Positions 9,411 through 53,582 of a DNA stretch of 64,000 bases are shown piece after piece. Made by a program: the position numbers and the translations under genes. Position 1 is the stretch's first letter. Every line of letters starts with the position of its first letter. The notes beneath the pieces are model-generated. The model was given only the letters and a program-made list of their open reading frames with translations. It ran no database searches and was not told where the DNA came from. This DNA is from Marsupella aquatica (lineage: Eukaryota; Plantae; Marchantiophyta). The stretch spans positions 24,557,538 through 24,621,537 of the forward strand of contig OZ316895.1 of NCBI GenBank assembly GCA_973895155.1, read 5' to 3'.

Positions 9411-9707
9411 CTCGGGGGTTTCACTTCCACAAAAATGGCATATCACGTGCGACGAAGGATAGGGTCATTTTATTGGTTCTAAGGGAAGACTTAAGAATTT
9501 TTGTAGAAGAACAATAGGGTCTTTTAAATTCAATTTTGAGACTTATAAGAACATTAGGGTCTTTTTAATCCATTTTTTAGAATATTCCAAGAATATTCCA
9601 ACTTTATAGGGGTTAAAAAATAAATTTTTTTTCTTACATTTTAGGGGGTTCGAGGCCTAAAAACGTCGCAGGCGATAGGGAGGTCCCCATATAGTGAGAC
9701 CCCTGAG
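9411..9707. mobile_element. 297-bp MITE inserted in the transposase
   Basis: 8-bp TSD AACTCAGT (9403-9410, 9708-9715); 15-bp TIR CTCGGGGGTTTCACT vs CTCAGGGGTCTCACT (13/15); AT-rich interior. Confidence 0.9.
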
Positions 9708-11440: not shown

Positions 11441-11542
11441 CCCCATTTGGAAAAGATGTTCCAAACAGGAAGCTGTTGTACCTCGAGATGATCTCAAGGT
11501 AAAGTGACTAGCAAAAACAAACCAACTGAACTAGCAGTAACA

Positions 11543-11777
11543 GATTAAGAAGTCTTTAGCTCGAGACAATCTCGAGGTAAAGAAAGGACCACAAAAATCA
11601 CGAGATATAGATTAACAAAGTCTTCAGCTCGAGACGATCTTGAGGTAAGTAATGGACCACAAAAACCACGAGATATAGATTAACAAAGTCTTCAGCTCGA
11701 GACGATCTTGAGGTAAAGAATGGACCACAAAAACCATGAGATATAGATTAACAAAGTCTTCAGCTTGAGACAATCCA
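11543..11777 (+). repeat. 68-bp tandem repeat (~3.5 units), each carrying the element palindrome, upstream of the transposase
   Basis: Unit gattaacaaagtcttcagctcgagacgatcttgaggtaaagaatggaccacaaaaaccacgagatata; palindromes at 11559, 11627, 11695 and 11763 (partial). Confidence 0.9.
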
Positions 11778-13476
11778 CATGAAGAGGGAATTCTATACTT
11801 CCAACGATCAATAATCCACCCTAGAAGAAGAACTATGAAGTGCATAGAAACAACAGCTCATAATAACTCCTCAGAGAAGCATGAACTCACGCAAGAGAAG
11901 GAAAGATACTTAAATACTTGTGGATTTAAAGGAGCTAGAAACAAAAACAGACAATTCCCAAGAAGATACCTAAAGCTTGAGACGATCTCGAGCCACAAAT
12001 GACACTCTAATTGAAAAATATGTTGTTATGATTGAGGAGCTCTAGATGATCTAGAGGTAAAAGTTTGACATTGAAATACATAAAGTAGGCTTATAGAAGA
12101 CTAATGAGAAATAGCTTAAAAAAAAGAGAAAAGGTTCACAAATGGATTCTGAGTGACAATGTTTTAAGCATAAATGGTTTGGTATTCTAAAAGGTATGGG
12201 TTCAATTATTTTAGACCAACTTCATGGCTTCAAATGAGAATGTCTCCAAAACCAAATAAACAACTGAGAGAGAAAGGACTTCGAGAAAAAATCTAGAGCC
12301 AGAGAACAGGGAGCGAGAGGCAGGGGCAGGAAGAGGGATAAGAGAGAGAATGAGGGGAGCAGGAAGCGAGCAATGAAACAATATCTGAAGAATGACCCGA
12401 TGGAGAGGAAAACGAGCAATATATAAAATCCTGCCTGACCAGACGGCTCTGTCAAACCAATGGCAAGGATGAACTAGCGGCAGGGTGAAGTACAGACCGC
12501 AATAATGATGGTACGTGTGACAGCACCGTCATCATGACTCAACTCAAGATTCACTCCCACGCATGGGCGCGTGGCATCCTGCACGTGGCCGGGCATCCGT
12601 CGTCGGGCACCCCAGCCTGACTCAGGGCCGACCGAGCGGCTTATAGTCCACATTCGCAACGTCGCCACCCTCATTTGCACATTTGCCTCCCTGCCTACCT
12701 CCCCTCCGCGCCTCACTCGCCTCTTGCTTGCTGCCTCTAGATATTTTGTCACTTTTGCCTCTAGATCGTCATTTTTTCCTCGAGACTTGTTTAGGGTCAA
12801 GATCCCCTTTGAGCCTCGAGATATTTTATAGCCGTTTGGATTGAGATTTTCTTGTGAGCCTCGAGATAATATTTTCTTATATCACCCAGATCTAGTATCC
12901 ACTATCCAGTAGCCATGTCGACCGTTGTAGATTTCTCCAAGGACAACTTCGCCGAGTACGACGCATCAACTGTAGCGATGGAGCTTCAGACCCTTCTAGA
13001 TTCATCATAGAACATCCACCGCACTATCAAACGTAATATATTATCTTTTCTCATTGTTAGATGGAGGTTTGGCTCGAGATCATCTCGAGCTTCAAATCAT
13101 ACTTGGTTTTTGATCCACTTGAGGGTCGAGATCATCTCGAGCCGATTGATATTTTCTGCATTACTTTGCTTCAAGAGGTGGCTTCGAAGTGAACAAGTTT
13201 ATCGTTTGTAACTGAGATTAGGCTCGAGATCGTCTCGAGCCTAATATCCACAAAGTTAAGAGGTTTCTGTCATTTTCATATTGATGTATCTGTCAGATTG
13301 CTGTATCTGTCATGCTGTATCTGTCATGCTGTATCTGTCAAATACTAACAGCATATCCAAAAGGGATTATGGAAAAGGCAGATTTAGATTCCTATTGAAT
13401 ATGTTGTTCGTATTTGACTTATGTTTTGTTATTTCCGATGGAAAACAATATCCTTCGGAAACCAACATCATATCGA

Positions 13477-14110
13477 AAGTCGTCCAAGCTTGCTTCTGAA
13501 AATGACTTCTGTACTCTCCAACTTGTTCTGATCATGGAAATCATCCCGAGTTAGAGAGTTTTTGAAGCCTTTGCCAGAGGTGAACTTGGACAACTTTTGA
13601 GTATGTTGTTCGTATTCGATCGACATTCTCATATTTGAGAATCAATGTCTTCAGTGAAGAAACATGATAATGCAAAGATTTAGTTAACGGTGAACGAATG
13701 CCAATTGTGAGTCTCTGTATTCTAACTTTTAGAGACTTGGGTCGAGATGATCTCGACCCAAGTATTAAAATATCCAATTCATCAATAGTGTACTAACTTT
13801 TTGCCTTGTCAGATTTTTTGCATATGGAAGACCACGTCTATCGACCACAAAAGTCGACCAAGCTTGCTTCTGTCAACGACTTCTGTACTCTCCAACTCGT
13901 TCTGATCATGGAAATCATCCCGAGTTAGAGAGTTTCTGAAGCCGGTGTTAGACATAAGCTTGATCAACTTTTGAGTATGATGTTCGTATTCAATGGAGAT
14001 TCTCATAATTGAGAATCGATGTTTTCCTACGACGAAATATGATAATGCAAAGATTTAGATACCGTTGACTGTTTAGCCACGATTGACTCTTCCTGTATTC
14101 TATTTCTAAA
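13477..14110 (+). repeat. ~250-bp imperfect direct duplication inside the first cargo-gene intron
   Basis: aagtcgtccaagcttgcttctg…gataatgcaaagatttag at ~13477-13730 and ~13851-14110; each copy is followed by a palindrome (13740, 14130). Confidence 0.85.
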
Positions 14111-15344
14111 GTATTGTTCACGAATTTAGGGTCGAGATCATCTCGAGCTTCCATTGTATTCCATGCTTGCCATCTGTAGATTGCGAAATACCCTCCAACT
14201 CGTTTCCATTGATGATTGGGGTTCGAAAAGGTGATTGGTAGTTGGGTTTATGATATTTTAGAATCAATTCCTCCCCCCAAATACATCTGGCCATGAAACA
14301 ACGGTTTTGTACTTATTTGAGTTCAACTATGTTAATGGGTGAGGGAAGCTCGAGATCGTCTCGAGCCTCTTACGGGATTTCTCATTTCTGTGATTCTGAC
14401 AATTGGTCTATTTTTCATTTTTTCCAGGTGCAAAATTGGGATCGCCCAATTTGATTGTTGAAGATGAACATGCCCTTGAGGTTTTGTGCCCTGGACAAAC
14501 TGATATAGGATTCTGTTGGGCCATTGAGCTAGCTGAAATTGAGGAGATGGAGGGGTCAGTTATTTGCTTGAAGACGAGGTCTCCATCTACCAAACCTCTA
14601 GTTTGCAGCTTACTTGGGCCTGTTGTTTCCATTGTCACAAGTAATGGTAAGGACATGGTCTTGACGGTGGAGAACCATGAGACTGGGAAATGGGCTCTCA
14701 TTAGGCTTCACTCCAAGAACTACTCGTGCAATCTTAATATTGAACGTGCTGCTAGGAAACAACTGAGCGTGATACCAATGGGATTCTTCCCCGATGGATT
14801 TACTGCCAGTAATTTGTTGGAAGAGTCCAAAATGACTGGGGCAGATATAATTTTTGGATTCTTGTATTGCCGGAAATACGGTTTTGATCATGACAATGAA
14901 TTCACGACTCCTTTCACTTGGAAGGTTTTGAGAATAATGTCAGATTCCAAGGTGGGAGAGTTTCAATCCATTTCCCCTGATTTTGTTTTTGGAGCTGGTG
15001 AATTTGACGAGGAAGGGTGTAAGAAGTGGGTGTTGTCTCATCGGAGACAAACAGGTAAAGGAAAATCAGGAGCTTCAGGAGATAAGATGTCAGGCTCGGA
15101 CAAGAAGGAGGTAAAGGTGGCGCAAAAGAGGAAAAGGGTTGAGAAACCTGAAAGCGCTTCGAAGAAGGCTCCGCCTAAGAAAAAATCTGCGCCTGTAAAG
15201 GTAGATCTCATTCTGGCATCTTCTTCGGGTGTGATTGCACATACCGATGATGATGGCACTCCAGGAGATGCTCCGGGTGAAAAGAGCGTTAAAGAAGGAG
15301 CCGAAGTTCTTAAGGAGATTGAGGAGTATTACACATTTGGCATG

Positions 15345-15790
15345 AATGAAACTTTTGACATTCCTGTCACTAGTATAGATTCACCTTCTGCAGTTTTGGT
15401 ATATAGGATGTTCAATAAGGACCATGCCATGGAGATCGCAAAATCCATGGTTAGAAACCCTGGAATGGTACCAGCTGTGGCGGATTTAATTCCGTATTCA
15501 AGAGAGAGTTCGCAGTTGCTCCATTATGATAATACTCCTGAGGATCGAAAGGAGTTCGAGTGGGGTGTTAAGAATAAGAAGGTGCAATTCCTTGCAATTA
15601 GTGGACAACACTCGGCCAAGGCAGCAGTTTGGATCATTGGTTGGTCTAAGAGCGATGCAAAGTTGAAGGAGGTCACCAAGAGTCTTCAGCTTTGAAAGTC
15701 ACAAATTCTTTTGGACAAAACTCCAAGAACAATACTTGCTCAACACTCACAAAGGGCAAATGCAGTTAACAAGACAATGGAGTATGAGTC
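15345..15790 (+). other. ParB/Sulfiredoxin-like domain in the cargo protein
   Basis: FDIPVTSI…YRMFNKDHAMEIAKSMVRNPG…FLAISGQHSAKAA…(stop)KSQILL…HSQRANAVN follows the ParB-N pattern (IPxxxI, R, LAxSI..G, IDGxHR, terminal EN/AN); the GxHR Arg is replaced by Ser. Confidence 0.6.
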
Positions 15791-16759
15791 CTATTTTCTT
15801 GATACTATGGTCCATGCCCGTCGACAGTTTGACGTGTGTGGCCATCCGGAGAGACTCGTGATTGGGTCCAATAGACTAACGGATCATCAAAAGTTCCAGG
15901 TATATTCGAACTCAAATCCACTTCTAGCTCGAGATTGTTTCGAGCCTCAAGGTCAAGTTTTTGTATTCAAGTCTTTTTCAATAAATTCCAACATAGTTTC
16001 TTCATTCTACCTCTAGATCGTCTCAAGCCTCAGATTTTCGTTGTTATCTTTGGATCAGGATTTCATGGCTTTGGCCAAAATAACGACTGGAAAATCTGAC
16101 CTGAAGAATATTTTTTGGTTGTTGTTTTCGGAAGAGAAACTGTTCCAGTCTTGGAGACTAATATGCATCGATTGGGTCAAGGGGCTTCTTCCTGATGGAC
16201 TTGGTGAGTTAGGTTCAAAAATGAACGGGAAAAGCCGGACAACAAAAATGATTACACCGGCATTGTTTAGATGCTTTGAAGGGGACCTCAGTAGTGAGGA
16301 CATTCTAAAGGTGTTCACCGCCGTTCATCATCAAAAGGTTCTATTGAAGAAAGACCCGGCGAACAAATCTGATGTTCAATCAATGAGTGACATGGCCCAT
16401 ACTTTTAAAGTCATGACAAAGCTGAGGGCAAAAATCGTGGAGTACTACGTTTTAAAGTATCCCGAAAATTTTTCCGATTCACTTACTTGGTTTGAGCTAA
16501 CTCAATTTTTGCCAGCATTTTTAGATCGCGGCGAATTGCCGAAACTGAGACAGCTCGCTGGGGAGGTTTGGCTGTCCAATCTCCTAAAGAGAAATAGGGC
16601 CAAAGAACCATTGCCGCAAAGTCTCATTGTGAAGCTTGAGCAGATATAGTGCAAGACGTTTGGTGGGACTCCTGCTATGGTGGATACTCCTTATCACAGT
16701 TTTTTAAGCGACAATCTTATGAGGACGATGAAGCCGGAATCAGTTGGACCCTTTCATAA

Positions 16760-17480
16760 TACGTGCGCACTTGCCGTTGTCGACTTTGGTCGTATTCGAC
16801 AACGTCAGTGGACAGATGCTGAGATTTTTGTCTTGTTGGAATATTGTCTGGAGATGTCTAACTCAACCGAGTTTTTGGCAATCATTTTTGTCCGTCAGGG
16901 CCCTTTAATAGGCCAGATTCAGAGTGCCTTCGAGAAGTTCCGTCGTGAGAAGAAAGTCCACACTAAGCTCGAGTACGATAGTTACTACCATGAAGATGTA
17001 CCCAAGGAGGAAGGTGACTTTCTCATAGGAGCACGGGACACTATCATTTTTGGGGGAGTTTGTTGTGATGAAGAGCCTGACTGGTCCCAAATTTTCTTCG
17101 ACGATTTTTATGCGTTCTGGAATTACAATGCTAAGTACGACAAAGACTTCACCATCTTACCGATGAGGTCTTCCGCTGGGAAAAGCAAGGATCAACAAAG
17201 AGGGAAAGAGAAGCAGGATGAAGTTGGAGTTGATGTCAAAGTATTGGAGAAGATGGCCCCGTCTTATGAGATGGTCGGTCGGAGAGGGGGCTTTGTAAAC
17301 CCCAGAGCTAAACCTATACGAATGACAAAGCGTCTTGTTGATTATTTCTCCAGCACTGGTCACACAGTGCTTGACTTCTTCTTCGGAGGGCAGACCCTCA
17401 AAGCTTGCGTCATTGTTGGTCAGGATTGTTTTGTTTATTCTGACACAGCTCAAGAGATGGAATTCATCGAAGCTTATGCG
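16760..17480 (+). other. Degenerate beta-class N6-adenine/N4-cytosine DNA methyltransferase-like domain
   Basis: VNPRAKPIRMTKRLVDYFSSTGHTVLDFFFGGQTLKACVIVGQDCF resembles the N6_N4_Mtase C-terminus (HPxxKPxxLxxRLI..S..GD.VLDPFxGSGTT..A....R.F); the motif IV position probably reads LAVVDFG (no DPPY/SPPY). Confidence 0.65.
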
Positions 17481-18603
17481 CGGCTCCTCCATGACAACCG
17501 CCATGTTTTATATATTCCACCCCGAGAGTCGTTGCCATCTGAGGCCATTGAAGTCGGTCCCCTTACTGTTTTGGAAGAAGTGGCCTCGGATCCAGCTCCA
17601 GTTGAGGCGAGTGTTTCCGAGGAAGTTTTTGCGGAGAATTTGGAGCATCGCAAAACAGAGGGCCCCAAAATCCCAAGCTACATGGAAGAGGAGGGTGAAA
17701 TATTGCCCGAATTTAATGAGGTAAATGATGGTCGAGATGATCTCGAGCTTCCTGGTGTACCTTCTTCGGGGGACGTGTTTCATGCAGAGGATGCACAACG
17801 TGAGCAGCAGTCTTTGAACTTGGATGTTGGTTGGGAAACCACCTTGCAGGATGCTGCCAGCCACCCAATTCCTAGCCCACCTTGACTCGATGAGATCCTT
17901 TCAACCAAGAAAGCTTGTTGCTCCCCTGCCATAACTCCCCCTCAGGACGAGGCAGGTGCATCGTCTTCTCCCTTGGACCAAATGTTTTGCGCTTCAGAGG
18001 ATAAGCTTGTTTTCACAGATTCTTCTACTGGAAGCCCCATAATTCTCCCTTTTGTTAGGAAACCTGGTGTTGAAATCGGTAGAACTGACTACAAATCTCT
18101 CAAAGCTAATGCTACTCATTATGTGTGGATTCATGGTCCATCAAAAGGCGAACAAGTCAGTGTAGATCAGGCTGAGAAGATTATGCGTTCCAGGGATTAT
18201 AGGAAAAATAAGTTCAAATTAGTGCCAGTCTGGTCTGAGCCAGCTCTTGTTGAAATGCTTCCTGGAGGGATCAATTTGGACATCCAAAACCAATTAGGAG
18301 ATAACCTTCTAGATGAATTTGGGTCTTTTGGCAAGTGACGTTGAAACCCAAGCTACCTTCAGTCCTCAAATTCAGCCATCTAAATTATTATGTCTACCTT
18401 CACAGTGATAGGCGGGCCATTACCAGTTGTGGATTGCATCGACAATAGTCTCCAAAGCTTTCCACATTCTTTGACATCTGCCCTTCAGCCAATTGCAGGT
18501 TTGTCACGCACTGTTGTTCATTTACTTTTCATGCTCGAGATCATCTCTAGCCTACCATTATTTTGTCTCACACAATTTTAATATAGGTGTCTCTTGTTTG
18601 CAG

Positions 18604-19661
18604 GACCCTTGCCTCCACTTCACGGTCCAATCAGACGGAAGCTATTGATTCTTGACCTCAACAAAATGTGTTGGGATTCTGTTAGAACTCCGAGTCCCGG
18701 ACCGCGTCGAAGTGCCACAAGTGTCAAGGGTGTTCATTGGGGGAGAAGTGGAGGATTTAACTTTATGTATGTTGAGCGTCCCCATCTTCACGAGTTCTTA
18801 ATCGCAACTTTTGCTATATTTGATGTTGCCATCTGGACTTGTGCGAGAAAGCCCAGGGCAAATGAAATGATTCATTTGATCTTCACTCAAGAAGAGCAGG
18901 AGCAATTCAAGTTTATTCTAACGCAAGAAGATACATTTGACACTGGAATCCAGAGGCCTGATGTCACCGAAGGAAAGGCAAATATTCTTTTGAAGGATTT
19001 GAGGGTTGTTTGGAAACGTTATGGTTTATTATACGATGAGACTAATACACTCCTCCTTAATGACTCTCCAATGAAGGCGTTTGCAAATCCAGAGAATTGT
19101 GGGTTGTTCCCTTCTTCATTTTTGCATCACTCCACGGATGATACTTTCTTTCCCGAAATACTGTGGCCTCTGCTGAGGAAATTGTATCATGCCTTCAATC
19201 TTCAACACTACCTATTTATCAATCAACCAAAGTGGTCTATGATCAATGTTTTATCGGACAGGGATCAACATGCTGCCATTTATGCGCTGTTGTCGGAGAG
19301 GTGGGGTAGTATGGTATGGGTTCCCACTGTTATCCATACAGTCTTGGATGTTACAGCGGACGAAATTCCCTGGGATATCAAGAATGAAGTGCAACAATTG
19401 CCACCAATTGAGGAATTGACGGAGGAGGCGATCGAGGACCTTATAAGGATATTAATTGGGGATCAGTATACAGGACCCTATAGAGACAATCATCTGGCAT
19501 TTGTTTTGGAAGTTCTGAGGACTAGAGACCTCACGACTAAGTTTTGGAATAGAAATCCTCTGGATTTCTGCAATCGTGATATGAAATATGACCCGTCAGG
19601 GTCTAGATTTACTTGCTCAAATGAATTCTGCGGGGAGGAGGATCATGAGATTTGGGTCTAG
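18604..19661 (+). CDS. FCP1/NIF-type HAD phosphatase-like domain (probably the last exon of the cargo gene)
   Basis: RRKLLILDLNKMC…YVERPHLHEFL…FDVAIWTCA…LLKDLRVVW…YDETNTLLLNDSPMKAFANP; acceptor ttgtttgcag at 18603. Confidence 0.8.
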
Positions 19662-24652: not shown

Positions 24653-25105
24653 TCAGTCATCGTCGCTCCACATCCTGGACTTTCTGAAAATCCTTCTACA
24701 CTCCAAGAGAATGTCCGCAGCAGCAGCGGTGGTCACCACCACGGTCACCCTCTCCTTGAGTACGTTGCATTCCACGGACTTCACGCCCTTCATCTCAAAC
24801 AGAGCAACCTTGATTGAATCCACACATTCTCCGCAGCAAATTGGAACCTTCATCACGACCTTTGTCTCCTTCTTGTCCTTCGCGTCGCCGCCTTCTTTCT
24901 TCGGTTGGGGCGCAATGTAATCCGGATAATAGTAGGGGTAGTAAGGAATGCTTGCGAGTATAGTGTCGTCCTTCTCTGCGGCCTTCTTACCGCCGCCCGA
25001 AGACGAGCTCTTGTCATCGCCCCCTTTCTTGTTGTCATTCTTCTCAGGCTTCAACACCCACACGGGCTCCGAGCCCCCGTAGAACAAATCCTGCATGGAC
25101 ATCAT
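24653..25105 (-). CDS. HMA-domain protein (HPP-type metallochaperone-like), paralogue 1, 150 aa
   Basis: VVMKVPICCGECVDSIKVALFEMKGVKSVECN…RVTVV; ends MWSDDD; start context gcaagATG shared with paralogues 2 and 3; no CaaX. Confidence 0.88.
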   Translation of the reverse strand: MMSMQDLFYGGSEPVWVLKPEKNDNKKGGDDKSSSSGGGKKAAEKDDTILASIPYYPYYYPDYIAPQPKKEGGDAKDKKETKVVMKVPICCGECVDSIKVALFEMKGVKSVECNVLKERVTVVVTTAAAADILLECRRIFRKSRMWSDDD

Positions 25106-30291: not shown

Positions 30292-30783
30292 TCAGTCATC
30301 TTCGTTCCACATCCTGGACTCCTTGAATGCCTTCCTACATTCCATGAGAATGTCTGCGGGAGCAGCTGTGGTTACCACCACCGTCACCCTGTGTCTCATG
30401 ATGTTGCACTGCACAGACTTCACTCCCTCCATCTCATTCAGAGGAACTTTGATTGAATCCTCACAGCCACTGCAACAGATTGGGATCTTCATCACGACCT
30501 CCGTTTCCTTGTTGGCATAACCATACGAATTGTCCGGTAGACGACCAAAGTGATAAGGGTCAGGTTGGTAAGGGTAGGGAAAGTAGGGAGAGTAGTAAGG
30601 ACTTGTCGTAAAGGTTGGGTACTCCTGTTTCTCTGCTTCACTGGCCCCACTTGAAGTTGAGTATTCATCGTTGTCAGTCTCATTCGTGCTTCGTGACTGT
30701 TCCTCATCTTCGCCCTCGTCGTCGTCCCTGGGAATCCAGACGGGCTCCGCCTTCCCGTAGAACAATTCCCTCATGGGCAACAT
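30292..30783 (-). CDS. HMA-domain protein, paralogue 2, 163 aa
   Basis: MLPMRELFYGKAEPVW…VVMKIPICCSGCEDSIKVPLNEMEGVKSVQCN…MWNEDD. Confidence 0.88.
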   Translation of the reverse strand: MLPMRELFYGKAEPVWIPRDDDEGEDEEQSRSTNETDNDEYSTSSGASEAEKQEYPTFTTSPYYSPYFPYPYQPDPYHFGRLPDNSYGYANKETEVVMKIPICCSGCEDSIKVPLNEMEGVKSVQCNIMRHRVTVVVTTAAPADILMECRKAFKESRMWNEDD

Positions 30784-31443: not shown

Positions 31444-34400
31444 AGCTCAGCAGTGACTGTCACTTCTTTGGCTGTAAGGGGGACACAGTAACCATTTTTT
31501 GTTGTTTTGTGAACATTTTGAGTTGAGATTCCATGTTGGGGCCCCGAATCTTAACGTGTAGTGGGTGTTTTCCGTAGCGGGTCAACCGTTTCCGATAAAA
31601 GGGTATTTCCGCCCCAACCAACTTCCTTACAATGCTCTTAGCTTACTCGACAGCAGTGTGAACTTTTACGGAGTACTAACAAATTGTCGTTATCTGGACA
31701 GACTAGCGACCGAAAGGGCCCGTCACGGTATTGTATTGATTTGGCTCCATATTAAAACAGAATCCATTCCTTGGGGTTCTCGAAGAATTTGCAAGCACCG
31801 CAACAGAAATTGAGGGAGACTAGTCAATTGCCCAAATCGCTGCCACTCTTGGTTGCGTTTGTAGTATGGGATACATCTTGAAATTCCCACCTATTTCTGT
31901 TGACATGCAGTGGAGATTGGCTGTCAGGAAGTTATTACTCGTGGGAAGTTATCACGGCAGTTGAAATAGAAGTTTAGGGGTAGAACTAAGGTAGATCCAG
32001 TCAAGAGTGTACACAATTTATGTAGAAGATTCTTAAGATGCAGTCTCTTCAATGATGGAAGGCTTCCTTCGCCGGGCGACTCCAGGCTTTTTCCATTTTT
32101 GTACAACCAAAGTTAGGGGCAAGAACAGATGTATAGCTGTAGATTGAAGGACTGAAGAACACGATTCAACGGTTACTCGATCTTAAACAACCAATTCGAC
32201 GATAGCAAATTAAAATCTGGCTGATTAATACCTGTACGGATTTGGAGCTGAAATTCGTTCCTTCAGATAGCCCCTGCTCTATGTCAATATTTGGTGCTCA
32301 GTTTGAAATTTTGAAAATTGATTCAAAAGCCATCGCAGTATTAGCTACCCCGAGGAAAGTTCAGGTCAGGTTCTGGTTGGTACAGTTTGCGAGTGGCCAT
32401 CTAAAGGATAGAATGAAGTGTTGCGATCAAAATTCTTCCATGAATCTTTAGATTTGGAGCAATTTGAAACAGTAGCTCGACCACTACTGGCTACCTCAAT
32501 TATCGACGTTGTGAGAAAATCACAGTGCGCGAACAGGATGAGAGCGGTAGACGGCTTTAGCGTTTACGTACAAGCAAGGTAGCAACAGCCTTTTGGGACT
32601 GTTCTCACTGTCTTAATTGCTGTACAATATAGTACCTTGTAAAGCCTGTAAACAGTCTGATCTGCTCGACTACGGATGCCCGAAACGAAAGCCTTAAGCC
32701 CACTTCCCAGCTGCTGCCGTTAGCACTTAAATATTAAGACCGATGGAGCTCAACTATTAAGACCTCCGACCATAAGACCTCGGACCATAAGTTGAGTACA
32801 GCCCCTGTAAACTTGCACCAAGGCATTTGATTTTTGCACATGTGGTGTCTATCAGATAAGCCCGCTCTGACCTGCTTCCGACCACTGTGGTACTGCACAT
32901 CAAGATGACAAATGAACTTTTCAATGCTCCTCTTAGAAACCTTTCGTCTCTCCCTGCTTCTTGGTGTTTTGTTAGGTTTCACTACAGTAGTTTTCTTCCG
33001 AATCTAAGATTGAGAATACCCCAGAGAATACCTCCATGAAGCATGCTCCTGATTAGGCCAAACGAAATTCAATTCCAAAATCGAGCTGGGTGGGTAGTGA
33101 AGGTCAGATTCAAAGAAAATGGTGAACTCAAGAGTCCAAGAGAAAGGAGAGGTAGCTGTGGTCCAAGAGGAGTCCTAAGAAAAGTGTAATGGTCAATGAC
33201 CAATAGAATGGGAATATGTGAGATACGCCTAGACCCTTGTGAGATACAGTTGCTGGGTTTCACACCAAACAGGTGAGACGGGAAGGTCAACTCTTTCCAA
33301 AGAGACACTAGAGTGAGAGGGCTGGCAAAATAGGAACACTACCAAATATACTCTTGACCCAGACCCCTGGTTCGCCCACTCTAGGTAATCGGATGGATTT
33401 CAAAGAATTTGCACCACGCAACTATTTTCCAGGAGCATCTACTTGTGTCACATTTTCACCCTTTTAGACAAAGAATAGATGGTGGAGCTTGAGAGAGTCA
33501 TGGATGGAATTTCTTCAAATGATCAAGATCCCTAGGAGGTAAAGTACAGTGGGTTGAATTTCACTCAAAGTGACCCTAAGTAAGGCCAAGCACTGAAAAT
33601 GAAATCCCCCAATTGCAGAGCTTGACATGCTTTGGAAAACTAAGTGGAAAATTAATTAAAACAACCTCAAATGTCAAAAGCAAAGCCCGGATAGACCTCT
33701 AGGTTGTCAAAATGCTCCCATGGATATCTGCAACTCAGATAAACCACAGTTTACTCACAATGTCACATAGAATATTCCTAATTAGTCCATCCCAATTGTA
33801 TGGTTTCCATCTACAGTCCATCATTTTCCCCCAATGTCACATCAAAAACTTGCCACACAAAGTGTTTATATTGCAGTGCCTAATATCAAATGGCATCCAA
33901 TGGGGGATACACGATCCCAATTGCAGGAGACCTACTAGTTGGGCAGAAACAAGGAGAAACCCCAGGAAGACCAAAAGAGCTCAAAGACCCAAGAGCCCCC
34001 AGCGGAAACCCCCACTGCAGCGGCTAGAAGCAAAAACCCTAGAAGTCTACCTATCCGCAACATTGTAGAGCTCTGGGCTGAACTGCAATAGAGACCAAAA
34101 GCATCAAATCTGACACGTAAAGCATGCTTGAACAAGGCACTCCCTTACAATTGCTTACCAACACAAGTTTCTGTGGGAGAGTGCAATCAGAATTTGATAG
34201 TTTGAGAGCCCACTGTCATTGATACTGGGTCGTCATATACTTCTCAGCTGCCCACTATAGCTGCTCTGTGTAAGTCCAGCTTCAGGTCTGTTCTCTGTCC
34301 TCCTGACCAAAGATGGCACTCTGTAATTGTATTTGAAGAATTGCAAGAGGGGCCCAATAGACCTCTTTCACACTTGGTGGTGGACGATTCCTTGATATAC

Positions 34401-34901
34401 TTCGTTGGAGACAGAAAAATTAGAAATGTAAAATATGTGCTAATGTAACGAATTGAAGGGACAGCATTCCAGTCTAACCGATAGCCTGCTAGCGAAAGTA
34501 GCCACCCTTCTTGGGACACAATAAGTTTAAAGATGCTACTGGAGGTCCCCTACATGTCAAGTGGCAGTGAGATTTTTTATTATCGAAGTGAGACTTGTAA
34601 AGGAACCGTCGTTGTCCAGAACTGTTCAAAAAATAGAACAACACTAAAATCAAGTAAGAAAAAACCTCTAGATCATACATATTTGTGCATAAAAAGCATA
34701 ACAGATATTTTGTCATTTCCAACAGTCCGTCAAATCAATGACACGGAACACCTAAGGGTTGCATTAGCCAACCATTATTTAACACGTAATGTGTCCAACA
34801 ACCTTGTGTAGGATCTCCACCAAGGCACCTACTTTTCGTCCCTGATAAATTGTCCAATATTTCTGCACCTATCTTCTTCTCCATTACATGCTTCCACTGG
34901 T

Positions 34902-35684
34902 TTGGCTATCCCAGTACCAATTTCCAGTGGTAGAGACGATAGTATTGCTACAGATTGTGTGACCAGAGCTACACTTGATTCTGGTCATGCTGCTCCATCT
35001 TTCCTGGCTATGCTGTTGAGTGGGAAGACCGTGGACACTAACTCCCTTCACAAGGTACCTCATCATTTGCCAAAAGTGGTGCCTAGTGATAGGACTTTAG
35101 TTTCCACCACCATTGCCATTGTTGACAACAGGAATTCAGCGGTCAAGTTGGAGGGTCACACTCAAGTGGTCATGCTAGACACAGGCGCTCAACCAGTGAT
35201 ATTGGGCATTCAGTTTGCCAAGAAGATGGGATTGCTGACTGATCATTTACAGCGTGGCACATTTGGACTGTTAGTGGCACTATGGAGGGTGTGCTGGGTG
35301 AGCGTTCTACTTTACTCACTCTCACTTTTAATGGAGGTACAGATCAGGAATTGCATTTCCCAGTCAAATGTTTGGTTACCAATGCCACTACGTATGATGT
35401 GCCAGGAGGCTTTGTTCCCACCAGGTTTTACCATTGACAACTGGCATGAGCATGCATACTACAGAGTTGATTGGCATACGGATGGCTCACACTTGGGCTA
35501 TATTCCACTTGATTTGCATGGTGCCCATACACCTATGGCTCACCACTGTGTGTTGAAAGCAGTGCACACAGCTACCTATGTCAACCACCCATTGCAGGAT
35601 TGGATTGAGGAGGATGATGATGAGGTGGCTATTGCACATGCTGCTGCACGTATAGCAGCACTTTCCAGCAACGTGGATCATTAA
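34902..35684 (+). pseudogene. Retroviral-type aspartic protease region
   Basis: VMLDTGAQPVILG; two compensating frameshifts near 35255 and 35400 (alternative frame WHIWTVSGTMEGVLGE…CLVTNATTYDV). Confidence 0.8.
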
Positions 35685-35799
35685 CCAGAGGTGGTACAAC
35701 GGCTCCAAGCAGCCCATGGACCTTTGGTGGCTGCATTGCAAAAATTTGAGGACCTTGGGCAGCACAATGGCCAACCAATAGCCCCAATCTTGAGCGCAC

Positions 35800-36790
35800 C
35801 AGTTACATGGACTCCTCCTCCGGATGGCCTTACATTGCTTGAGCTTTTTGGTGGCATTTCTACAGGCCTGGAAGCTCTCATACAGTCTGGCATGGTGGTG
35901 AAGCAGTACATCTATGTGGACATTGATCCAGGTGCAAGGCAAGTGGCTGAATCCCGTCTACTGGAATTTTCAGAGCGATTTCCCCAGCAGTTTCCACACA
36001 GTGCATGGAAGTCTGCATTTTCTTTCTTTCCTCCAGATATCCAGCTTGTCCAGCACTGGCACTTAACCCTTCTTGGCTCCCTTGATTTGATCATAGCTGG
36101 TTGGGAATGCCAAGGGTTTTCAGCTGCTGGTCATGGTGGTGGACTGCATGATTCTCGTTCTGGCCTTTTCACAACATTGGTTCAGATTCTCACCTGGGCT
36201 CAATCCCTTTATCCTGCTGTTGGTTATATCATTGAGAATACTCCATCTCAGTTTGACCAACGTCCACAGGTCAAAGAGGATTTCAGTGTGGTCCAGCACT
36301 ACTTGGGACCACCCCTTCTCATTGATGCAGTGCACTATGGTTCTTATGCACATCGTCTTCGTAACTTTTGGATTAACTTTGCACCACCTTCCTTGTTGGA
36401 GTTAGCTCTTCACCACACATCCAGGGACACTAACCTCACAGCGGACCAGATTTTGGATCCTGACAGTTCTTGCCAACCAGTTACACAGCAAGAGCCAGCA
36501 CCTTGGTATCCAGCCAATACCATTGGACAGCCCCGTGCTGCTTGGCCTACATTTGTATCCTCTCCAGGTGCACATGCCTTTCAAGGTGATGGTCCTGGCC
36601 TGGTTTATCGACATTCTACCGGTACTTGGGATGAACCTAGTCTTGAGGAGAGAGAACGGGCTATGGGCTTCCAATCCGGTACTACAGGCCACACCCAAAT
36701 CACTAGGCTGGTCAGGAATGCTTTACTTGGCAGGGTAATGGATCTTAAGGCTCTCACTTGGCTTCTGGTCACTTGCATCCTTTTTCAGAT
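35800..36790 (+). CDS. C5 cytosine DNA methyltransferase domain embedded in Pol
   Basis: Motif I LLELFGGISTG; II YVDID; IV LIIAGWECQGFS (catalytic Cys retained, PC->EC); VI YIIENT; VIII HRLRNFW; IX ERERAMGF; X LLGRVMD. Confidence 0.9.
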
Positions 36791-37166
36791 GTACATTCAT
36801 CCAGCATCTGGAGCTCCAGCCCTACCACTCCACAGTGCTGCTACATGGCATCCAGACCAGGTGCACTTACCTCTGTCCAACACTCACCACTTCAGTCCAA
36901 GTGTTGGGGGGGAGGAGGTCCCTTGTAATGTGGCTGATATTATTTTTGAGTTTCATGGTGTGGATCAGACCAGAGCAACAGATACAACAGACCTTGGAGA
37001 GGCCTCATCACCTTATCAACAGCATGCTAGCAGCTTGGATAGTGGAGAGGCTGGCACTTCTGGCTCTTCAAGCACAAGTACATAAGGTCCTATTCCTAGT
37101 GTTGCCAACTACACATTCATCACGGGCAACCACCTGAGTAAAGGACAGAAGGACCAGCTGCTGAAT

Positions 37167-38030
37167 TTGCTCCTCAAGCATGAGAATGTCTTTGCTTTCT
37201 CTATGAAGGACTTGGGTAAGTGCAAGACTATGCAGTTCTCCATTGAGTTGGTTGATGAAACACCTATCTTCAGGCGGAGACACCGTTTGAGTAAGCATGA
37301 GTGGCAGTTGGTGGATGAGAGGTGCCAAGAGCTCTATGAAGCTGGTCTTATTCAGCCATCTATATCAAATTTTGCAGCAGCTACAGTGATGCCAGCAAAG
37401 AAGGATTCCAGTGGGTTATGGACAAAGAAGCGCATGTGTGGGGACTACAGGCCACTGAACCTGGTCACACCCCAAGACAGGTACCCCATGCCACGGCCAG
37501 AGGAGCTATTTGACAGCATTGGAGACTTAGACATCTTCACTCTTGTGGATCTAAGGCAAGGCTTTAACCAGATTTTGTTGCTTGCAAAGGACCGCAAGAA
37601 AACAACTTTCCATGGTAGTAACCAACTATGGGAGTGGTTGGTGATGCCATTTGGCTTGAAGAATGCGCCCATATTCTTTCAAAGAGTCATGGACCAGGTT
37701 CTTCAAGGTGCTGAGTTTCTGAAATGCTACATTGATGATGTGTTGGTCCACAACAAAGGATTTGACCAGCATCTACTTGACCTTGAAGAGCTATTCGTGA
37801 GGCTTAAGAAGGTGAACCTAAAGATACACCCCAAGAAGTGTGAATTTGCTGTCAGATCAGTAGTATACCTTGGGCACCGCATTCTTCCAAATGGAAGCAT
37901 GGCTCACTGGGCCAAGGTGGTATCCATCTTGGAAATGCTCACTCCTACTGATGTTCACACTTTGAGGAGTTTTATTGGGTTATGCAATTACTACCAGATC
38001 TACATCAAAGATTTCAGTACCATTGCTGAC
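37167..38030 (+). CDS. Reverse transcriptase (Gypsy-type)
   Basis: KRMCGDYRPLN, DRYPMP, LVDLRQGFNQI, VMPFGLKNAP, CYIDDVL, KCEF, YLGH, LRSFIGLCNYY. Confidence 0.95.
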
Positions 38031-38359
38031 ACTATATCCCGCAGCCCTTTGATTGCCTCTGATGATTCCTCAGATGCACGGCAGGATTTTGACCAGGTTT
38101 CCATCTTGTCTATATTTCATGCATCTACCTATCTTGCTTTGCTGCCATGCTACGTTGTTGACCAACCTGTGGTGGACATATGGGAGGACAACGACACTCT
38201 GAGATTTTTGCAGCATGGGGAGTACCCCATACATGTCACTGCTGCCCAGAGAGACCAAATTCAGCAAAGGTCCAAGCGTTACTTGTGGAAGGGAGATCAT
38301 CTCGTGTGCTGCTTGCCAGACAGGGAAGTGGTGGTTCCACCCATTCATGAGAGGGTTGG

Positions 38360-39505
38360 CCTTATCCGTAAGGTACATTCTGAGCTTGGTCATTTTGGCG
38401 TTAAGAGGACTTACAGCCTCTTGGTCCCTCATTATCATTGGAGAGGCATGCATGGCCAGGTTCGAGATGTTATTGCCCGGTGTGAACAGTGTGATAGGGT
38501 GAGGACTTCTTTCACATCTCGACAACCCACACTTCATCCACTCCCTATTCAGGGCATGTTTTATCGCTGGTCATGTGATTTGGCTGGAGAATTACCCTCA
38601 CATCTCGGGGTAATCTCTACATCATGATGATGATAGAGCATTTCTCCAAGTGGATAGAACTTGTGGCATTGCCGGATAAGACCTCCCGTAGCACCAGCCA
38701 GGCATTCCTGCAACAAGTTCTCAGTCGCTTTGGAGCTTGTGCAGAATGTCTCACTGACCAGGGCTCAGAGTTTAGAGGAGAGTTCCAGGAGCTGCTTGAT
38801 CAGGCCCTCATTGATCATCGCCGGACATCACGAGATCACCCACAGGCAAATGGCTTGGCAGAGCGCATGGTTCAGACATGCAAGAAGGGCCTCTGGAAAA
38901 TCTGCCTCACCAAAAACAAGGAGGATTGGGACCTGGCCTTACCCTACATTGCCATGGGGTATAGGATGTCCAGACATGCAGCACTGTCTAATTTTTCTCC
39001 CTACTTCTTGTTGTTTGGTCGTCACCCAGTTCCACCTTCTGCTATTGCTGCTCACATGCTTCAGGTGGTGGACTTGGATTCAGCTGTGACTTGGTCTGAT
39101 GTGATCTCTGAGAGGGCTGCCCTATTCAGGAGGGTTATGCCCATGGCCATGGAGAATTTGGCCATTGCACAGCACAGGGACACACTACGTTATGCACACA
39201 CACGAGGGGGCACTTTTGAGCCCAAGGTCAGGAAGTTTGATGTGGGAGATTTTGTGTACTTGCAGCGGCAAGCTAACGACACCCTGGACACCTCTACCAG
39301 TCGTACTATTCTCAGGGTTAAAGCTATTCGACCGTCTGGAGTGCTAGAGTTACAAGGGGCAGATGGGCGCACAATTGCTGACAATGCCAAGAATTGCGCT
39401 CCTTGTCATCTGCCTAACCTGGATCCCACCATTGTGACTTCTACGTGGATTCCACCTGTGGACTACCCTTGCAAAGTGTGTTTGTGCATTGACGATGCTG
39501 ACTAG
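38360..39505 (+). pseudogene. Integrase (HHCC zinc finger + DDE core), frameshift near 38600
   Basis: VHSELGHFG…CEQC; WSCDLAG, LTDQGSEF, HPQANGLAERMV; FSPYFLLFGR. Confidence 0.92.
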
Positions 39506-39613
39506 ATGCTGCTATGTGATAATTGCAATGGAGGGTACCATCTTTTCTGCCTTCGGCCTGAACTTACCCAGGTGCCAGAAGGGTTATGGTTTTGCCCTTC
39601 CTGTGCTACCTGA
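39466..39613 (+). other. PHD finger at the integrase C-terminus (one in-frame stop)
   Basis: [44 protein letters not shown] = C4HC3 PHD. Confidence 0.9.
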
Positions 39614-39640
39614 CTTTTCTTTAGCCCTCCTTTTGGCTGT

Positions 39641-39652
39641 GGTCTGGGGGGG
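39641..39652 (+). promoter_or_regulatory. Polypurine tract (PPT) candidate
   Basis: ggtctGGGGGGG just after the pol stop and before LTR-derived sequence. Confidence 0.6.
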
Positions 39653-39828
39653 ATACAGAGGTTTACACCTACACTACGAACATACCACCTCAGTTGCTTT
39701 TTCTTGGCACTTGTGAATGTGATTGGACTTTTTCTATGCATGTTGGTTGCTAGTAGCTTGCACATATGCATTGTCGGTGACTTGTATGTTTTCGATACAC
39801 TATGGCTACGATACTATATGTCACGACA
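39653..39828 (+). repeat. Extra copy of the 3'-terminal 176 bp of the LTR
   Basis: Near-identical to 40188-40363 (atacagaggtttacacct…tatatgtcacgaca). Confidence 0.9.
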
Positions 39829-39830
39829 AC

Positions 39831-40363
39831 TGTCATGCCGAGGGACAGTGCCTCTTATGCACATCGGCATGTCCCTCGCATGCCCGCTAGGTATGTAGTT
39901 AGGGCTAGTGTATTACTTGAGTTAGCGACATGTTCTTATAGCAAATTCCAGGCGTTCTTGAAGTAAACACGCTTGTTAGTGTGACGCCAGGACTTTGTTT
40001 ACTTAGGGCATGTCTTTCTTTGTTGGTTTTTAGTTCTTCTTGAATCGTTGTTGACAGAGCTCAGACAGTGCTCATCGGTTCCGTACACGGGATTCACACA
40101 GTGATTCGTTAGATGCTCCCGACCAATCTTGGCATCCCGCCGGTTTTTGATTCGATTTCAGTACGCTTGTTTCTCTTACGCCTTTATATACAGAGGTTTA
40201 CACCTCCACTACGTACATACCACCTCAGTTGCTTTTTCTTGGCACTTGTGAATGTGATTGGACTTTTTCTATGCATGTTGGTTGCTAGTAGCTTGCACAT
40301 ATGCATTGCTGGTGACTTGTATGTTTTTGATACACTATAGCAACGATACTATATGTCACGACA
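39831..40363 (+). repeat. 3' LTR (533 bp)
   Basis: TGTCATG…CACGACA termini (TG…CA with a short inverted repeat). Confidence 0.75.
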
Positions 40364-42724: not shown

Positions 42725-43106
42725 AGCAATTCCGCAATGCCAGGTTCCTGAATTTTTCTTCTTCGCATTTGGATTTTGTACCTCAGGACTGTCTGTGCGT
42801 AGCTAGCTCTACCCAGCTTAGTATTTGGCGTCTTTCTGCTGGTTCCAGTGAGCAATTCTGTAGTGCCAGGTTCCTGAAGGCCTCTTCTTCGCGTTGGGAT
42901 TTTAGTACCTCAGGACTTTCTGTGCGTAGCCTGCTCTACCCAGCTTAGTACTTGGCGTCTTTCTGGTTGTTCGAGTGAGCAATTTATGTAGTGCCAGGTT
43001 CCTGAAGTTTTCTCTTTCGCATTTGGATTCTAGTACTTCAGCTATTGTGTGCATAGCCAGCTCTACCCAGCTTAGTAGTTGGCGTCTTTCTGCTGGTTCC
43101 AGTGAG
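42725..43106 (+). repeat. ~126-bp tandem repeat x3 just upstream of HMA paralogue 3
   Basis: agcaatt…tgccaggttcctgaa…gctctacccagcttagta…ggcgtctttctg…agtg three times. Confidence 0.9.
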
Positions 43107-43257
43107 CTCGGAGTAACCCGAATTTGGTCCCTCGAATTGATCTACAGTAGCTCCCATCTGATTACTTAGGCGCTGTGACAAATTTTCTCACAGTTTTTGC
43201 GCATTCATTCGGGACAGGATCGCTTGAGCTTAAGGTTGGTTAATTCAGCTAGGCAAG

Positions 43258-43785
43258 ATGTGGTCCGTGAGGGATATGTTCTATGGGGAGGCGGAGCCCG
43301 TCTGGATTTCGAAGCCTGAGAAGGAGGATAACAAGAAGGGCGAGAGTAAGGGCGCGGGCGATTCTCAGGTCAGTAGGGGGGGCAATAAGAAGCAACCGGA
43401 GAGGATCGAAGAGTACCCCGTTCCTTATTATCCTTACCGAGATCCTTACTACTCCTACCCAGAGTACATTCCTCCTCCTTCTCAACCCAAGAGGGAAGAG
43501 TCCAACAAGGGCGGTGCTGCTCAGCAGCAGCAGCAGCAGCAGCAAAAGAAGGAGACAAGGGTCGAGTTGAAGGTTCCCATCTGTTGCGGAGAATGCTTGG
43601 AATTAATTGAGGGTGCTCTGTATCGGCTGAAGGGTGTGAAATCTGTGGTAGGCTACACCTACAAAGAAAAAGTGACAGTGATCGCAAGCACGGCTACCCC
43701 TGCAGACATTCTCAGTGTCGGAAGGTCTTCAAAAAGTCCAGGATGTGGACTGACGATGACTGAGCGTAATTATAATGTGGATTAA
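43258..43785 (+). CDS. HMA-domain protein, paralogue 3, with a C-terminal frameshift (ancestral stop at 43761-43763) and a poly-Q tract
   Basis: MWSVRDMFYGEAEPVW…VELKVPICCGECLELIEGALYRLKGVKSV; after PADIL the shifted frame reads CRKVFKKSRMWTDDD* as in the paralogues. Confidence 0.82.
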   Translation: MWSVRDMFYGEAEPVWISKPEKEDNKKGESKGAGDSQVSRGGNKKQPERIEEYPVPYYPYRDPYYSYPEYIPPPSQPKREESNKGGAAQQQQQQQQKKETRVELKVPICCGECLELIEGALYRLKGVKSVVGYTYKEKVTVIASTATPADILSVGRSSKSPGCGLTMTERNYNVD

Positions 43786-48447: not shown

Positions 48448-48903
48448 TCAGTCATCGTCGCTCCACATCCTCGACTTCTTGAAATGCTTCATGCACTCCA
48501 AGAGGATGTCTGCGGGAGCAGCAGTGGTTGCTACCACAGTCACTCTTTCTCTGAACCAGTTGCATTCCACAGACTTCACACCCTTCAATTCTCCAATAGC
48601 AACTTTTACTGTCTCCTCGCAATTACCGCAGCACATATTGACCTTCAACGCTACCGTTGTTTCTTTCTTCTTGTCTGTGCCCTTGGGGTCGTTCTTCCGC
48701 TTGTCGTGATCATCCTTCTTCGCGGGAGTAGGATCGTTGTAGAGGTAATTGTAGGAGCGAAGGTATTGAATGGGATTCGACCCCACTTTCTTTCCACTGG
48801 ACGCATCTTGGCCACTTGGATTCTTTTTGTCACCCTTCTTCGCGGCCCTCGGAATCCACACAGGTTCTAGGTGTCCAAAGGACGACTCCTTTGTAAATGA
48901 CAT
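48448..48903 (-). CDS. HMA-domain protein, paralogue 4, 151 aa
   Basis: SFGHLEPVWIPR…VALKVNMCCGNCEETVKVAIGELKGVKSVECN…MWSDDD; ATG at 48903. Confidence 0.85.
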   Translation of the reverse strand: MSFTKESSFGHLEPVWIPRAAKKGDKKNPSGQDASSGKKVGSNPIQYLRSYNYLYNDPTPAKKDDHDKRKNDPKGTDKKKETTVALKVNMCCGNCEETVKVAIGELKGVKSVECNWFRERVTVVATTAAPADILLECMKHFKKSRMWSDDD

Positions 48904-52095: not shown

Positions 52096-53262
52096 GATTA
52101 GTGGCACTTACTTCTTCTTGCCTTTACTTTTCTTGTGTGCATTTACTTTTCTTGTGTGCGGGTGCTATGTTACCTCACTTGTGTATTTAACGCTCCTCTG
52201 ATGAAGGAATTAACAAGTGATTTTAAATATACCCAACATTTCTACAGTTCCGACCCAAGAGAATATTTTCAGCTTTCAACAAATACGGTGCGACACGAGA
52301 CATGACCAAAAACATTAGATGAATGTGAGATTCATATTTCCCCTAACAGAGCGCACAACAGATCATAATAGGGGGTCTGCAACAGAAAGACAATTGTACC
52401 GCCAGGTATTGGGGGCTGTATAGGAAACAATCTGAGCGCTGCATGCTAGCTTCCTTAACTTCTGTTTTTGGATCCCAGATCCTTGTCCACGAACTCTGCT
52501 ACTCGGCCTGGACTGATGTCCAAGCATTCAGCAACATCATTAGAAATAGCATGAAATTCATATTCCTCAGTCAGAGAAAATCTACTAACCAAGGCAATCT
52601 AAACACGGATTGAGCTGAGTGTAATCAAGAAATGAGATTGAGCTTTCTTCTTACCAGCTCCTGTGTATTTATTTGATCATGCTCGTTGGAGCAGCGATAT
52701 TACTTAGGCTCGTTGGGAGTGTCTGTTTCAGAATATAGATCCTTGTATCAAATCTCTATTTTCCTCCAAACAATCTTGTCTTGCTCCCGTGCCAAAAACA
52801 GCTTTTGTGAGCCATATTTACAGTCATGCATGATTGTGAAGGTTTTACTTCAAGTTTCTCCTTGATAAGACATATGAAATCACTTATGTCAGTGGACTTA
52901 CGATGCATAACTCTGCTCATGCATTCAACATAGTTCAGAAAATTACTGTAGATAACTTCGTTTGTCTGGATGATACGATGGTAGAAACTGATTTAAGAGT
53001 AAACCCGAGAGTAAATCGCTCTAAGACTGGGAATTTTTGGATATCATAGCATTGCTCGCCTATAAGAACATAATATTCCATGATGTGACTTCAAAAGATT
53101 ATCTTGTCTTGAAATCACTCTCTTAGTCTCTTGGCTTGAAAGTACTGTTGGCACGGACAAGTGGACATTAGAGCAAGATTTTATGCGGTGAAACGATATC
53201 GTGGCTCACCAACATAGGAGACACAAGTCATGTTGACAGTGGATATAGCGCTTCACCTTAAT

Positions 53263-53582
53263 TGAATTTCGCTGGAGGCACCGTTAACCATTTGAATCTG
53301 AAAGGAAGTCTCCAGGGACCAGGGCCCATTATGGGCAGTCCTGTTCCTGAATTTCGCAGAAGGCACCGTTAACCAGTTGAATCTGAAAGGAAGTCTTCAG
53401 GGCCCATAACGGGCAGTCCTGTTCCTGAATTTCGCAGAAGGCACCGGTAACCAGTTGAATCTGAAAGGAAGTCTTCAGGGCCCATTATGGGCAGTCCTGT
53501 TCCTGAATTTCGCAGTAGTCAACGTGAACCATTTGAATCTGAAAGGAAGTCTTGAGGGCCCATGTTCATGAATTTCGCAGAA
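53263..53582 (+). repeat. ~78-85-bp minisatellite x4
   Basis: ggcaccgttaacca(t/g)ttgaatctgaaaggaagtct…gggcccat…tgttcctgaatttcgcag. Confidence 0.9.

Follow-up and report, generated by a model that had tools for sequence, protein, structure and literature searches.

A putative DNMT3-carrying Gypsy retrotransposon with split terminal repeats in the liverwort Marsupella aquatica

Introduction

The closest described systems are two kinds of retrotransposon with a Dnmt3-type cytosine methyltransferase (DNMT) domain. In KnitGypsy-Dnmt3 of Klebsormidium nitens the domain is part of a Gypsy Pol (de Mendoza et al., 2018; PMC5890265), and the accessible parts of that paper describe conserved catalytic residues, purifying selection and a DIRS-like repeat layout. 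In SymbioDIRS-Dnmt3 of Symbiodinium, a Dnmt3-type domain shares Pol with the reverse transcriptase (RT), and the repeats follow the order A-coding-B-A-B; these DIRS-borne domains were shown to methylate CG sites de novo in yeast, and the authors consider their acquisition independent (PMC5890265, accessible parts). Retrotransposon DNMT3s are also mentioned "in streptophytes" in the available part of a paper that cites the 2018 work (PMC12344493). In the literature searched we found no land-plant member of the DNMT Gypsy elements, although the supplements of PMC5890265 and PMC12344493 may bear on this, and no integrase element with split repeats beyond those of PMC5890265.

Other known elements share single features with the family described here. 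Tf1, Sushi and Tcn1 have a primer site complementary to their own 5' repeat and use no tRNA, and Gypsy-7a_cRei has a PHD finger in Gag-Pol; the consulted portions of the sources describe all of them with conventional LTR pairs and mention no cytosine methyltransferase for them (PMC6317226, PMC9940879).

Here we analyze a retrotransposon copy in a 64,000-nt stretch of Marsupella aquatica contig OZ316895.1 (the window), which an earlier note had singled out from the sequence alone. It shares with KnitGypsy-Dnmt3 the conserved catalytic residues, purifying selection and DIRS-like layout, and with SymbioDIRS-Dnmt3 the Dnmt3-type domain beside RT and the repeat order, but the latter has a tyrosine recombinase where the window family has a DDE integrase. 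We consider it on balance probable that the whole can be explained as a dead Gypsy copy whose DNMT likely methylated its own cDNA and whose family integrates with split ends.

Results

Layout and Decay of the Element

The element occupies positions 34902-40363 of the window on the plus strand, and its domains make it almost certainly a Gypsy-type retrotransposon with a DNMT3-like methyltransferase in Pol. The copy is 5'-truncated and decayed, with gag and the 5' repeat A1 absent within the window. The homology of its relatives begins at about 34938, and in run X3 the contigs of the unique flanks stop at 34901 and restart past the 3' repeat. All further features of the element lie on the same strand. 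The aspartic protease (PR; 35121-35401) has its D-T-G motif at 35178-35186; it matches PF13650 and PF13975 in the Pfam scan at E 4e-4 to 5e-4, under the cut-off, because the first half alone is in frame, while 35255-35401 reads in another frame in tblastn as a result of compensating indels. After a stop at 35682-35684 comes a stop-free DNMT frame of 466 codons (35685-37085, by ORF translation), which ends at a stop in the DNMT-RT linker (37083-37085). The RT with its YIDD motif (37209-38027; PF00078, RVT_1, 97.2 bits) is followed by an in-frame deletion junction at 38025-38056, where comparison with relatives indicates that about 158 codons covering RNase H (RH) were lost. The integrase (IN; 38172-39481) comprises an H2C2 zinc finger (PF17921, 51.2 bits) and an rve core (PF00665, 45.1 bits) and has a frameshift near 38594-38600; a C-terminal PHD finger (39482-39613; PF00628, 42.5 bits) is interrupted by a stop at 39503-39505.

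A one-frame translation of 34812-38630 thus reads protease, stop, DNMT, stop, RT. Of the in-frame PR-DNMT-RT polyprotein proposed in the earlier note, the shared frame stands; a single open polyprotein does not, given the stops, frameshifts and RNase H deletion. That reading had overlooked that the copy is dead, that it has a PHD finger and that its terminal repeats are split.

The two stops and the deletion are private to the window copy. At 35682-35684 a different letter is found in all four public runs examined, and the related proteins P0165, P0139 and P0122 are open across this position; at 37083-37085 the contigs of runs X1 and X3 run on with different letters, and P0121, P0165 and P0168 are open. 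Residues 303-460 of Calypogeia P0334 have no counterpart in the window element, about 500 nt of the related locus L003 are absent at the same junction, and the X3 contigs continue past 38026 into other sequence. The window copy is dead, as follows from the stops, the frameshifts, the loss of RNase H and the absence of gag and the 5' repeat.

The element is a member of a multi-copy family. Run X3 covers both window flanks without a difference at a depth of 15-17, and its element contigs, about 98% identical to the window, reach a depth of 1200-1700. The ratio is a rough hint of some 70-110 similar copies in the host, depth being no copy number; for Klebsormidium, 33 DNMT genes in all are given in the accessible text of PMC5890265. 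A stretch just before the element (33451-34084) also has raised depth in runs X1-X3; it would be another repeat, perhaps connected with how the element lost its 5' half.

The Methyltransferase Domain

The DNMT3-like C5 cytosine methyltransferase domain spans 35820-36770 without a stop and matches PF00145 with 28.7 bits against a cut-off of 22 in the Pfam scan, so the profile search that had been proposed identifies it as a C5-methyltransferase. Of the motifs I-X claimed, those located follow each other in the normal order: the SAM-binding motif I (ELFGG) at 35841, II and III at 35913 and 36033, motif IV (GWECQ) with the catalytic Cys codon at 36108, motif VI (EN, with its Glu) at 36234, motif VIII (AHRLR) with its Arg, IX at 36648 and X at 36723. 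Motif IV has Glu in place of the usual Pro before the catalytic Cys. This had been called unusual, which does not hold within the family, where Glu occupies the position in 61% of 160 distinct domains. All 160 carry the catalytic Cys, the Glu of motif VI and the Arg of motif VIII, and the window domain keeps 46 of the 49 columns conserved at ≥85% in this set. Judged by these residues, the domain looks catalytically complete.

A family profile built from 44 members matches DNMT3A at 7e-26, DRM at 2e-13, M.HhaI at 5e-10 and DNMT2 at 5e-4. The structure model of the window domain (pLDDT 95.8) aligns to DNMT3A 6f57 with E 1.1e-17 and TM 0.71/0.84, and its best fold matches are DNMT3A and 3B throughout. 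By the ranking of profile and modelled fold, the domain would belong to the DNMT3 class, nearer to DNMT3 than to DRM, DNMT1, DNMT2 or the bacterial enzymes. It has the fold and motif order of human DNMT3A/3B, but shares only about 21% identity with these cellular enzymes and lacks their PWWP and ADD domains; plant DRM2 is permuted, whereas the window DNMT is not.

In a comparison with L003, the DNMT has pN 0.185 and pS 0.72 (dN/dS about 0.09, with dS near saturation), which for this one pair indicates purifying selection; the pN of RT in the same pair is 0.094. Few intact copies are seen among 78 full-length DNMT stretches: 76 carry stops, and the window and L003 alone are stop-free. As for the intact copies that the earlier note had suggested looking for, open PR-DNMT-RT readings occur in Calypogeia fissa P0165 and in the related protein P0139.

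The stop-free frame amid broken neighbors raises the question of whether it is a host gene, either a domesticated stand-alone DNMT or a piece of host DNMT3 captured in the window copy. Without selection, roughly three quarters of nucleotide differences are expected to change a residue; of the 31 differences from the family majority (31/1401 nt of the DNMT frame, by run contigs), 16 do so, which is fewer. Nevertheless, the first ATG behind the stop (35892) falls after motif I, and the frame has no introns. Read depth over the DNMT domain is that of the family, as elsewhere in the element, and the same fusion occurs in liverwort, Sphagnum-type and algal relatives. Finally, its divergence fits the age given by the two B repeats at the 3' end of the element, which mismatch at 7 of 176 positions. 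A host gene is therefore largely refuted and in our estimate very improbable, and we retain the DNMT as a part of the element. With a substitution rate of 9.4e-9 (PMC12513842, available part), the two divergences date the window copy to about 2 million years, with a wide error.

Relatives in Green Algae and Bryophytes

Protein searches gave 138 close matches, 16 long matches and 1893 distant ones, of which the best 150 were examined. The named close relatives come from Calypogeia fissa, Sphagnum compactum and S. magellanicum, and further ones from Closterium, Klebsormidium nitens, Coleochaete and Tetradesmus. In keeping with the suggestion of a land-plant representative, the closest matches among the named relatives come from Calypogeia fissa and Sphagnum. 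C. fissa P0165, 65% identical, carries Gag-PR-DNMT-RT in one frame, and P0121 is open over DNMT-RT-RH. No named vascular plant with the DNMT domain was among the protein matches examined, which is weak evidence for the absence of DNMT Gypsy elements from vascular plants. Among viral contigs, 44 pattern matches included no relative.

The DNMT is also present in other copies of the family, both in the X3 contigs and in related loci. We surveyed 80 of 541 confirmed loci, and these 80 are close to named Sphagnum proteins; in 79 of them, further gag and pol domains follow the order Gag-PR-DNMT-RT-RH-IN-PHD. In addition to this architecture there is a second one. Among the long proteins, most read RT-RH-DNMT-IN-PHD (the Tetradesmus type) and a minority PR-DNMT-RT, and among the 160 DNMT domains 99 are of the chlorophyte type and 23 of the window type, with 37 left untyped. 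An example of the former is provided by Tetradesmus deserticola P0127, with a DNMT of the same family (38-39% identical) and the same IN-PHD end; the chlorophyte-type order RT-RH-DNMT-IN-PHD, often with a Tudor-like end, differs from the PR-DNMT-RT of the window type.

RT trees were built from 170 rows and then from a 47-row subset whose groups were picked after the 170-row tree. The RT of the window nests with Calypogeia and Sphagnum-type RTs (support 99), in line with a bryophyte host, and the RTs of both architectures fall together against 18 other Gypsy RTs (support 98). In the window's RT group, 6 of the 15 rows have no DNMT in the record, as these records begin at RT. In the unrooted DNMT tree, 15 PR-DNMT-RT rows form one side of a branch (100/98), opposite to the chlorophyte type, although a FastTree rooted on the long DIRS-type branch does not hold this group together. 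It includes the window, Closterium and K. nitens P0289, so that the kinship to charophyte retrotransposon DNMTs anticipated in the earlier note is recovered. P0289 (KFL_013780020) reads Gag-PR-DNMT and is 35% identical to the window over 326 aa, with GFPC in motif IV against the GWEC of the window; we infer that it is one of the KnitGypsy-Dnmt3 copies described in the accessible parts of PMC5890265. Those parts make no mention of a PHD finger, 4-bp duplications, an internal end junction or a self-priming site for KnitGypsy-Dnmt3, all of which are found or predicted in the window family.

These trees are most simply read as a single, old green-plant lineage of elements whose DNMT domain shifted its position in Pol. 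The domain seems to have changed its place or host element more than once, as suggested by P0124 (residues 913-1238), a PR-DNMT-RT protein whose DNMT falls among the RH-DNMT-IN type as sister to P0195 (100/98); forcing it into the window's group gives p-AU 0.044. Two separate captures may also have occurred, as the trees contain no cellular DNMT3. Green algae and bryophytes share this DNMT family, in two Pol positions, so its capture probably dates far back and is no peculiarity of Klebsormidium.

The RTs of the window, a Sphagnum-type copy and the liverwort Calypogeia are 84-85% identical (85% between the window and P0121, 84% between the window and Calypogeia P0334), with silent sites near saturation; either slow evolution or old horizontal transfer could account for this. 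A related DNMT is also found fused to a DIRS-type RNase H (PF00075) in P0136.

CpG Content and the Role of the Methyltransferase

The element had been called CpG-poor by eye, and the observed/expected ratio agrees: 0.30 in the element and 0.17 in the DNMT ORF against 0.61-0.62 in the flanks. None of 96 overlapping windows of the same size outside the element is as low. Across codons, silent CpG number 4 against 52 expected, and CHG is not depleted (1.07). In the DNMT frame, the window copy differs from the family at 6 of 36 CG, 6 of 167 CHG and 4 of 508 CHH sites, so host-type decay in the window genome favors CG. A set of the 31 best-supported differences out of several hundred (CHG 11, CHH 5, CG 2) had seemed to speak for self-methylation, but in the complete list for the DNMT frame CG is highest, and this argument was dropped. 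CpG depletion in the Sphagnum-type loci is weaker within the elements (0.43-0.55) than in the flanks (0.15-0.31), and CHG sites are lost as fast as CG sites (47/129 and 76/220, respectively). The loss of CpG follows the host; it is explained equally well by host methylation and gives no verdict on self-methylation.

As a part of a Gypsy Pol, the DNMT domain is present in the particle together with the cDNA. This placement, the invariant catalytic residues and the activity of the DIRS-borne Dnmt3 domains make methylation of the element's own cDNA its most likely job, and we give active CG methylation of that cDNA about an even chance. The same element may instead use its DNMT elsewhere, on target or host DNA after insertion, on RNA, or mostly as a nucleic-acid-binding module. 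The K. nitens domain produced no methylation in yeast, a result the authors call inconclusive, and they list RNA methylation and host benefit among the options (PMC5890265, accessible parts); the domain also occupies two different Pol positions in sister lineages. Yet the invariance of Cys, Glu and Arg in all 160 domains argues for catalysis, the closest solved enzymes act on DNA (DNMT3A, 7e-26) and DNMT2 is far behind (5e-4), and residence in the particle with the cDNA also counts against an activity elsewhere. We regard such an activity as rather doubtful and continue with methylation of the cDNA.

Split Terminal Repeats

The 3' part of the window element consists of three repeats in the order B-A-B. 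Repeat B1 (39653-39828, 176 nt) begins directly after a polypurine-tract-like G-run (39646-39652), found in the same position in all five related loci examined, and ends in CACGACA. It is joined to A2 at a near-palindromic junction of head-to-head ends, CACGACA-NN-TGTCATG (39822-39837), with a 2-bp spacer, as in 16/16 B-A junctions resolved in related loci. Repeat A2 (39831-40187, 357 nt) starts with TGTCATG and is joined exactly, end of A to start of B, to B2 (40188-40363), which again ends in CACGACA and marks the 3' end of the element, where depth drops to flank level. The 5' partner of A2, A1, has been lost from the window copy: no second copy of repeat A was found within the window, and neither A1 nor a left target duplication was found when sought there.

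In related loci A1 lies upstream of gag, giving the full layout A-coding-B-A-B. Their 5' side is A alone in 37/37 cases; the 3' side is B-A-B in 16, B in 15 and B-A in 2. Since L026 (A..B) and L062 (A..B-A-B) share one insertion site, recombination or assembly collapse also makes B-only ends, and these may have arisen after insertion or by assembly as well as being a possible by-product of integration. An inverted B repeat between gag and PR in two loci (8871-9032, minus strand, in both L025 and L028) is possibly the end of a nested copy.

The ends of the relatives have TG and CA and are flanked by a 4-bp target duplication, with 4/4 nt at 7 of 11 distinct sites and 3/4 at two more; it is absent at the other two. 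In this count L026/L062, L049/L066 and L074/L077 were each taken once, L014 (no B2) and L075/L080 (end unresolved) were left out, and the ends of L014, L019, L039 and L047, whose B finishes in a tandem motif, were read by eye. Thus, the relatives have the TG..CA ends and the duplication within the 4-6 bp characteristic of Gypsy elements (the window's left end being lost), and in place of two complete equal LTRs they have the split repeats A..B-A-B.

The A-coding-B-A-B layout is called typical of DIRS elements in the consulted sections of PMC5890265, which raises the alternative of a DIRS/Ngaro-type element inserted by a tyrosine recombinase. The window element, however, has protease, H2C2 and rve integrase domains, and the TG..CA ends with 4-bp duplications also speak against a DIRS/Ngaro origin. 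No tyrosine recombinase family was detected in a Pfam scan of the window frames and 25 related proteins. This alternative is refuted. Given the TG/CA ends with 4-bp duplications, a DDE integrase inserted the elements of this family, and the split ends suggest an unusual mode of insertion. The window element also has no chromodomain match.

Predicted Self-Priming Marks

Tf1-type elements prime reverse transcription on their own RNA. In the relatives, the 12 nt after A1 have a complement within A, 127-130 nt before its end and some 33 nt below a TATA-like box. The pairing covers 11 or all 12 of these nt in 15 of 24 distinct related 5' copies, a level reached by at most 1 in 200 control 12-mers per copy. 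The predicted site in the window lies at 40032-40043 (plus strand, in A2) in a version changed at two positions. Its complement is found in run X1, where 8 contigs have a loose end past 40185 (agreement 0.72), and is absent from run X2, where the loose end differs. The complement and its place below the TATA-like box are predicted marks of Tf1-like self-priming. The end model of the window copy would thus rest on relatives and one X1 loose end, the copy having lost its own A1, primer site and left duplication.

By its predicted priming marks the LTR is B+A, while A..B are the ends after integration. Because the two differ, we infer that the integrase cuts inside the LTR, which we hold to be fairly probable. 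A different explanation starts from a closed circle with two LTRs, which would be integrated after a cut at one or the other of two equal B-A sites. Its attraction is that the exact A2-B2 join matches the circle junction of a B+A LTR and that the B-A spacer is constant. A circle with two equal sites nevertheless predicts A-B-A 5' ends in about half of the copies, and these were seen at 0 of 37 loci; a B end before the 5' A copy was seen at 0 of 35. The lack of A-B-A 5' ends is easier to reconcile with a linear form cut close to its ends, and we consider the circle unlikely.

Discussion

The life cycle that would reconcile these observations combines a methylated cDNA with cuts near the ends of the linear form. 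The protease would release the DNMT beside RT and integrase. The RNA would begin inside A1 below the TATA-like box, prime itself on the 12 nt behind A1 in the manner of Tf1 and then jump to A2; the plus strand would begin at the G-run, leaving a cDNA that ends in B..A without TG or CA. Inside the particle, the DNMT would methylate CG sites on this new cDNA, and the methyl marks may give the new copy the look of host DNA or determine its chromatin state. A second B would be added by an end-to-end jump or by closure, which would also yield the exact A-B join. At each end, the integrase would then make a cut staggered by 2 nt in the nearest B-A palindrome; the product would be A-coding-B-A-B, with the same overhangs as ordinary 3' processing, and the PHD finger may steer the insertion by chromatin. 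For HIV-1 integrase, the available part of PMC1905944 describes an ability to cleave a palindromic LTR-LTR junction, which is a precedent and no test of this route.

In its most far-reaching form, the proposed history is that of an old green-plant lineage that has had its own DNMT3 since before land plants and, in bryophytes, was alive as recently as the last few million years, with the domain in two Pol positions, the cDNA methylated before insertion and an integrase cutting a palindromic junction inside the LTR. We advance this combination only tentatively. If true, it would describe an integration route new for LTR elements, one that produces split repeats and lets the family escape LTR finders.

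Several consequences follow for further analysis. DNMT-carrying retrotransposons are extended from one alga to land plants, and a young multi-copy family makes the role of a captured DNMT testable in hosts with ordinary plant silencing. The ends provide a concrete, testable model of DIRS-like split repeats in an integrase element. Catalogues made with LTR-FINDER, for which two equal LTRs with TG and CA are required according to the part of its description available, would probably overlook the family, whose DNMT domains can, we expect, inflate DNMT3 gene counts in bryophyte genomes.

Other Features of the Window

The window contains further features outside the element. A block of intronless frames at 7431-19661 resembles a large DNA transposon. 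It includes a DUF7869 frame (7431-9389, minus strand; 143.5 bits), an amino-methyltransferase-like frame (16677-17885, plus strand; PF01555 at E 2e-4, under the cut-off) and a NIF phosphatase (18666-19661; 48.9 bits). In the Atlas, the second frame matches unnamed clusters (0.93-0.95) as well as N6_N4_Mtase clusters (0.87-0.88). The block is possibly a second methyltransferase-bearing mobile element in the window. Four short, intronless paralogs with a heavy-metal-associated domain (PF00403) lie around the retrotransposon at 24653-25105 (minus), 30292-30783 (minus), 43258-43785 (plus) and 48448-48903 (minus), three of them above the cut-off and one below. Short tandem arrays are found at 53235-53563, 11550-11775 and 42730-43111, with units of 78, 68 and 127 nt, respectively.
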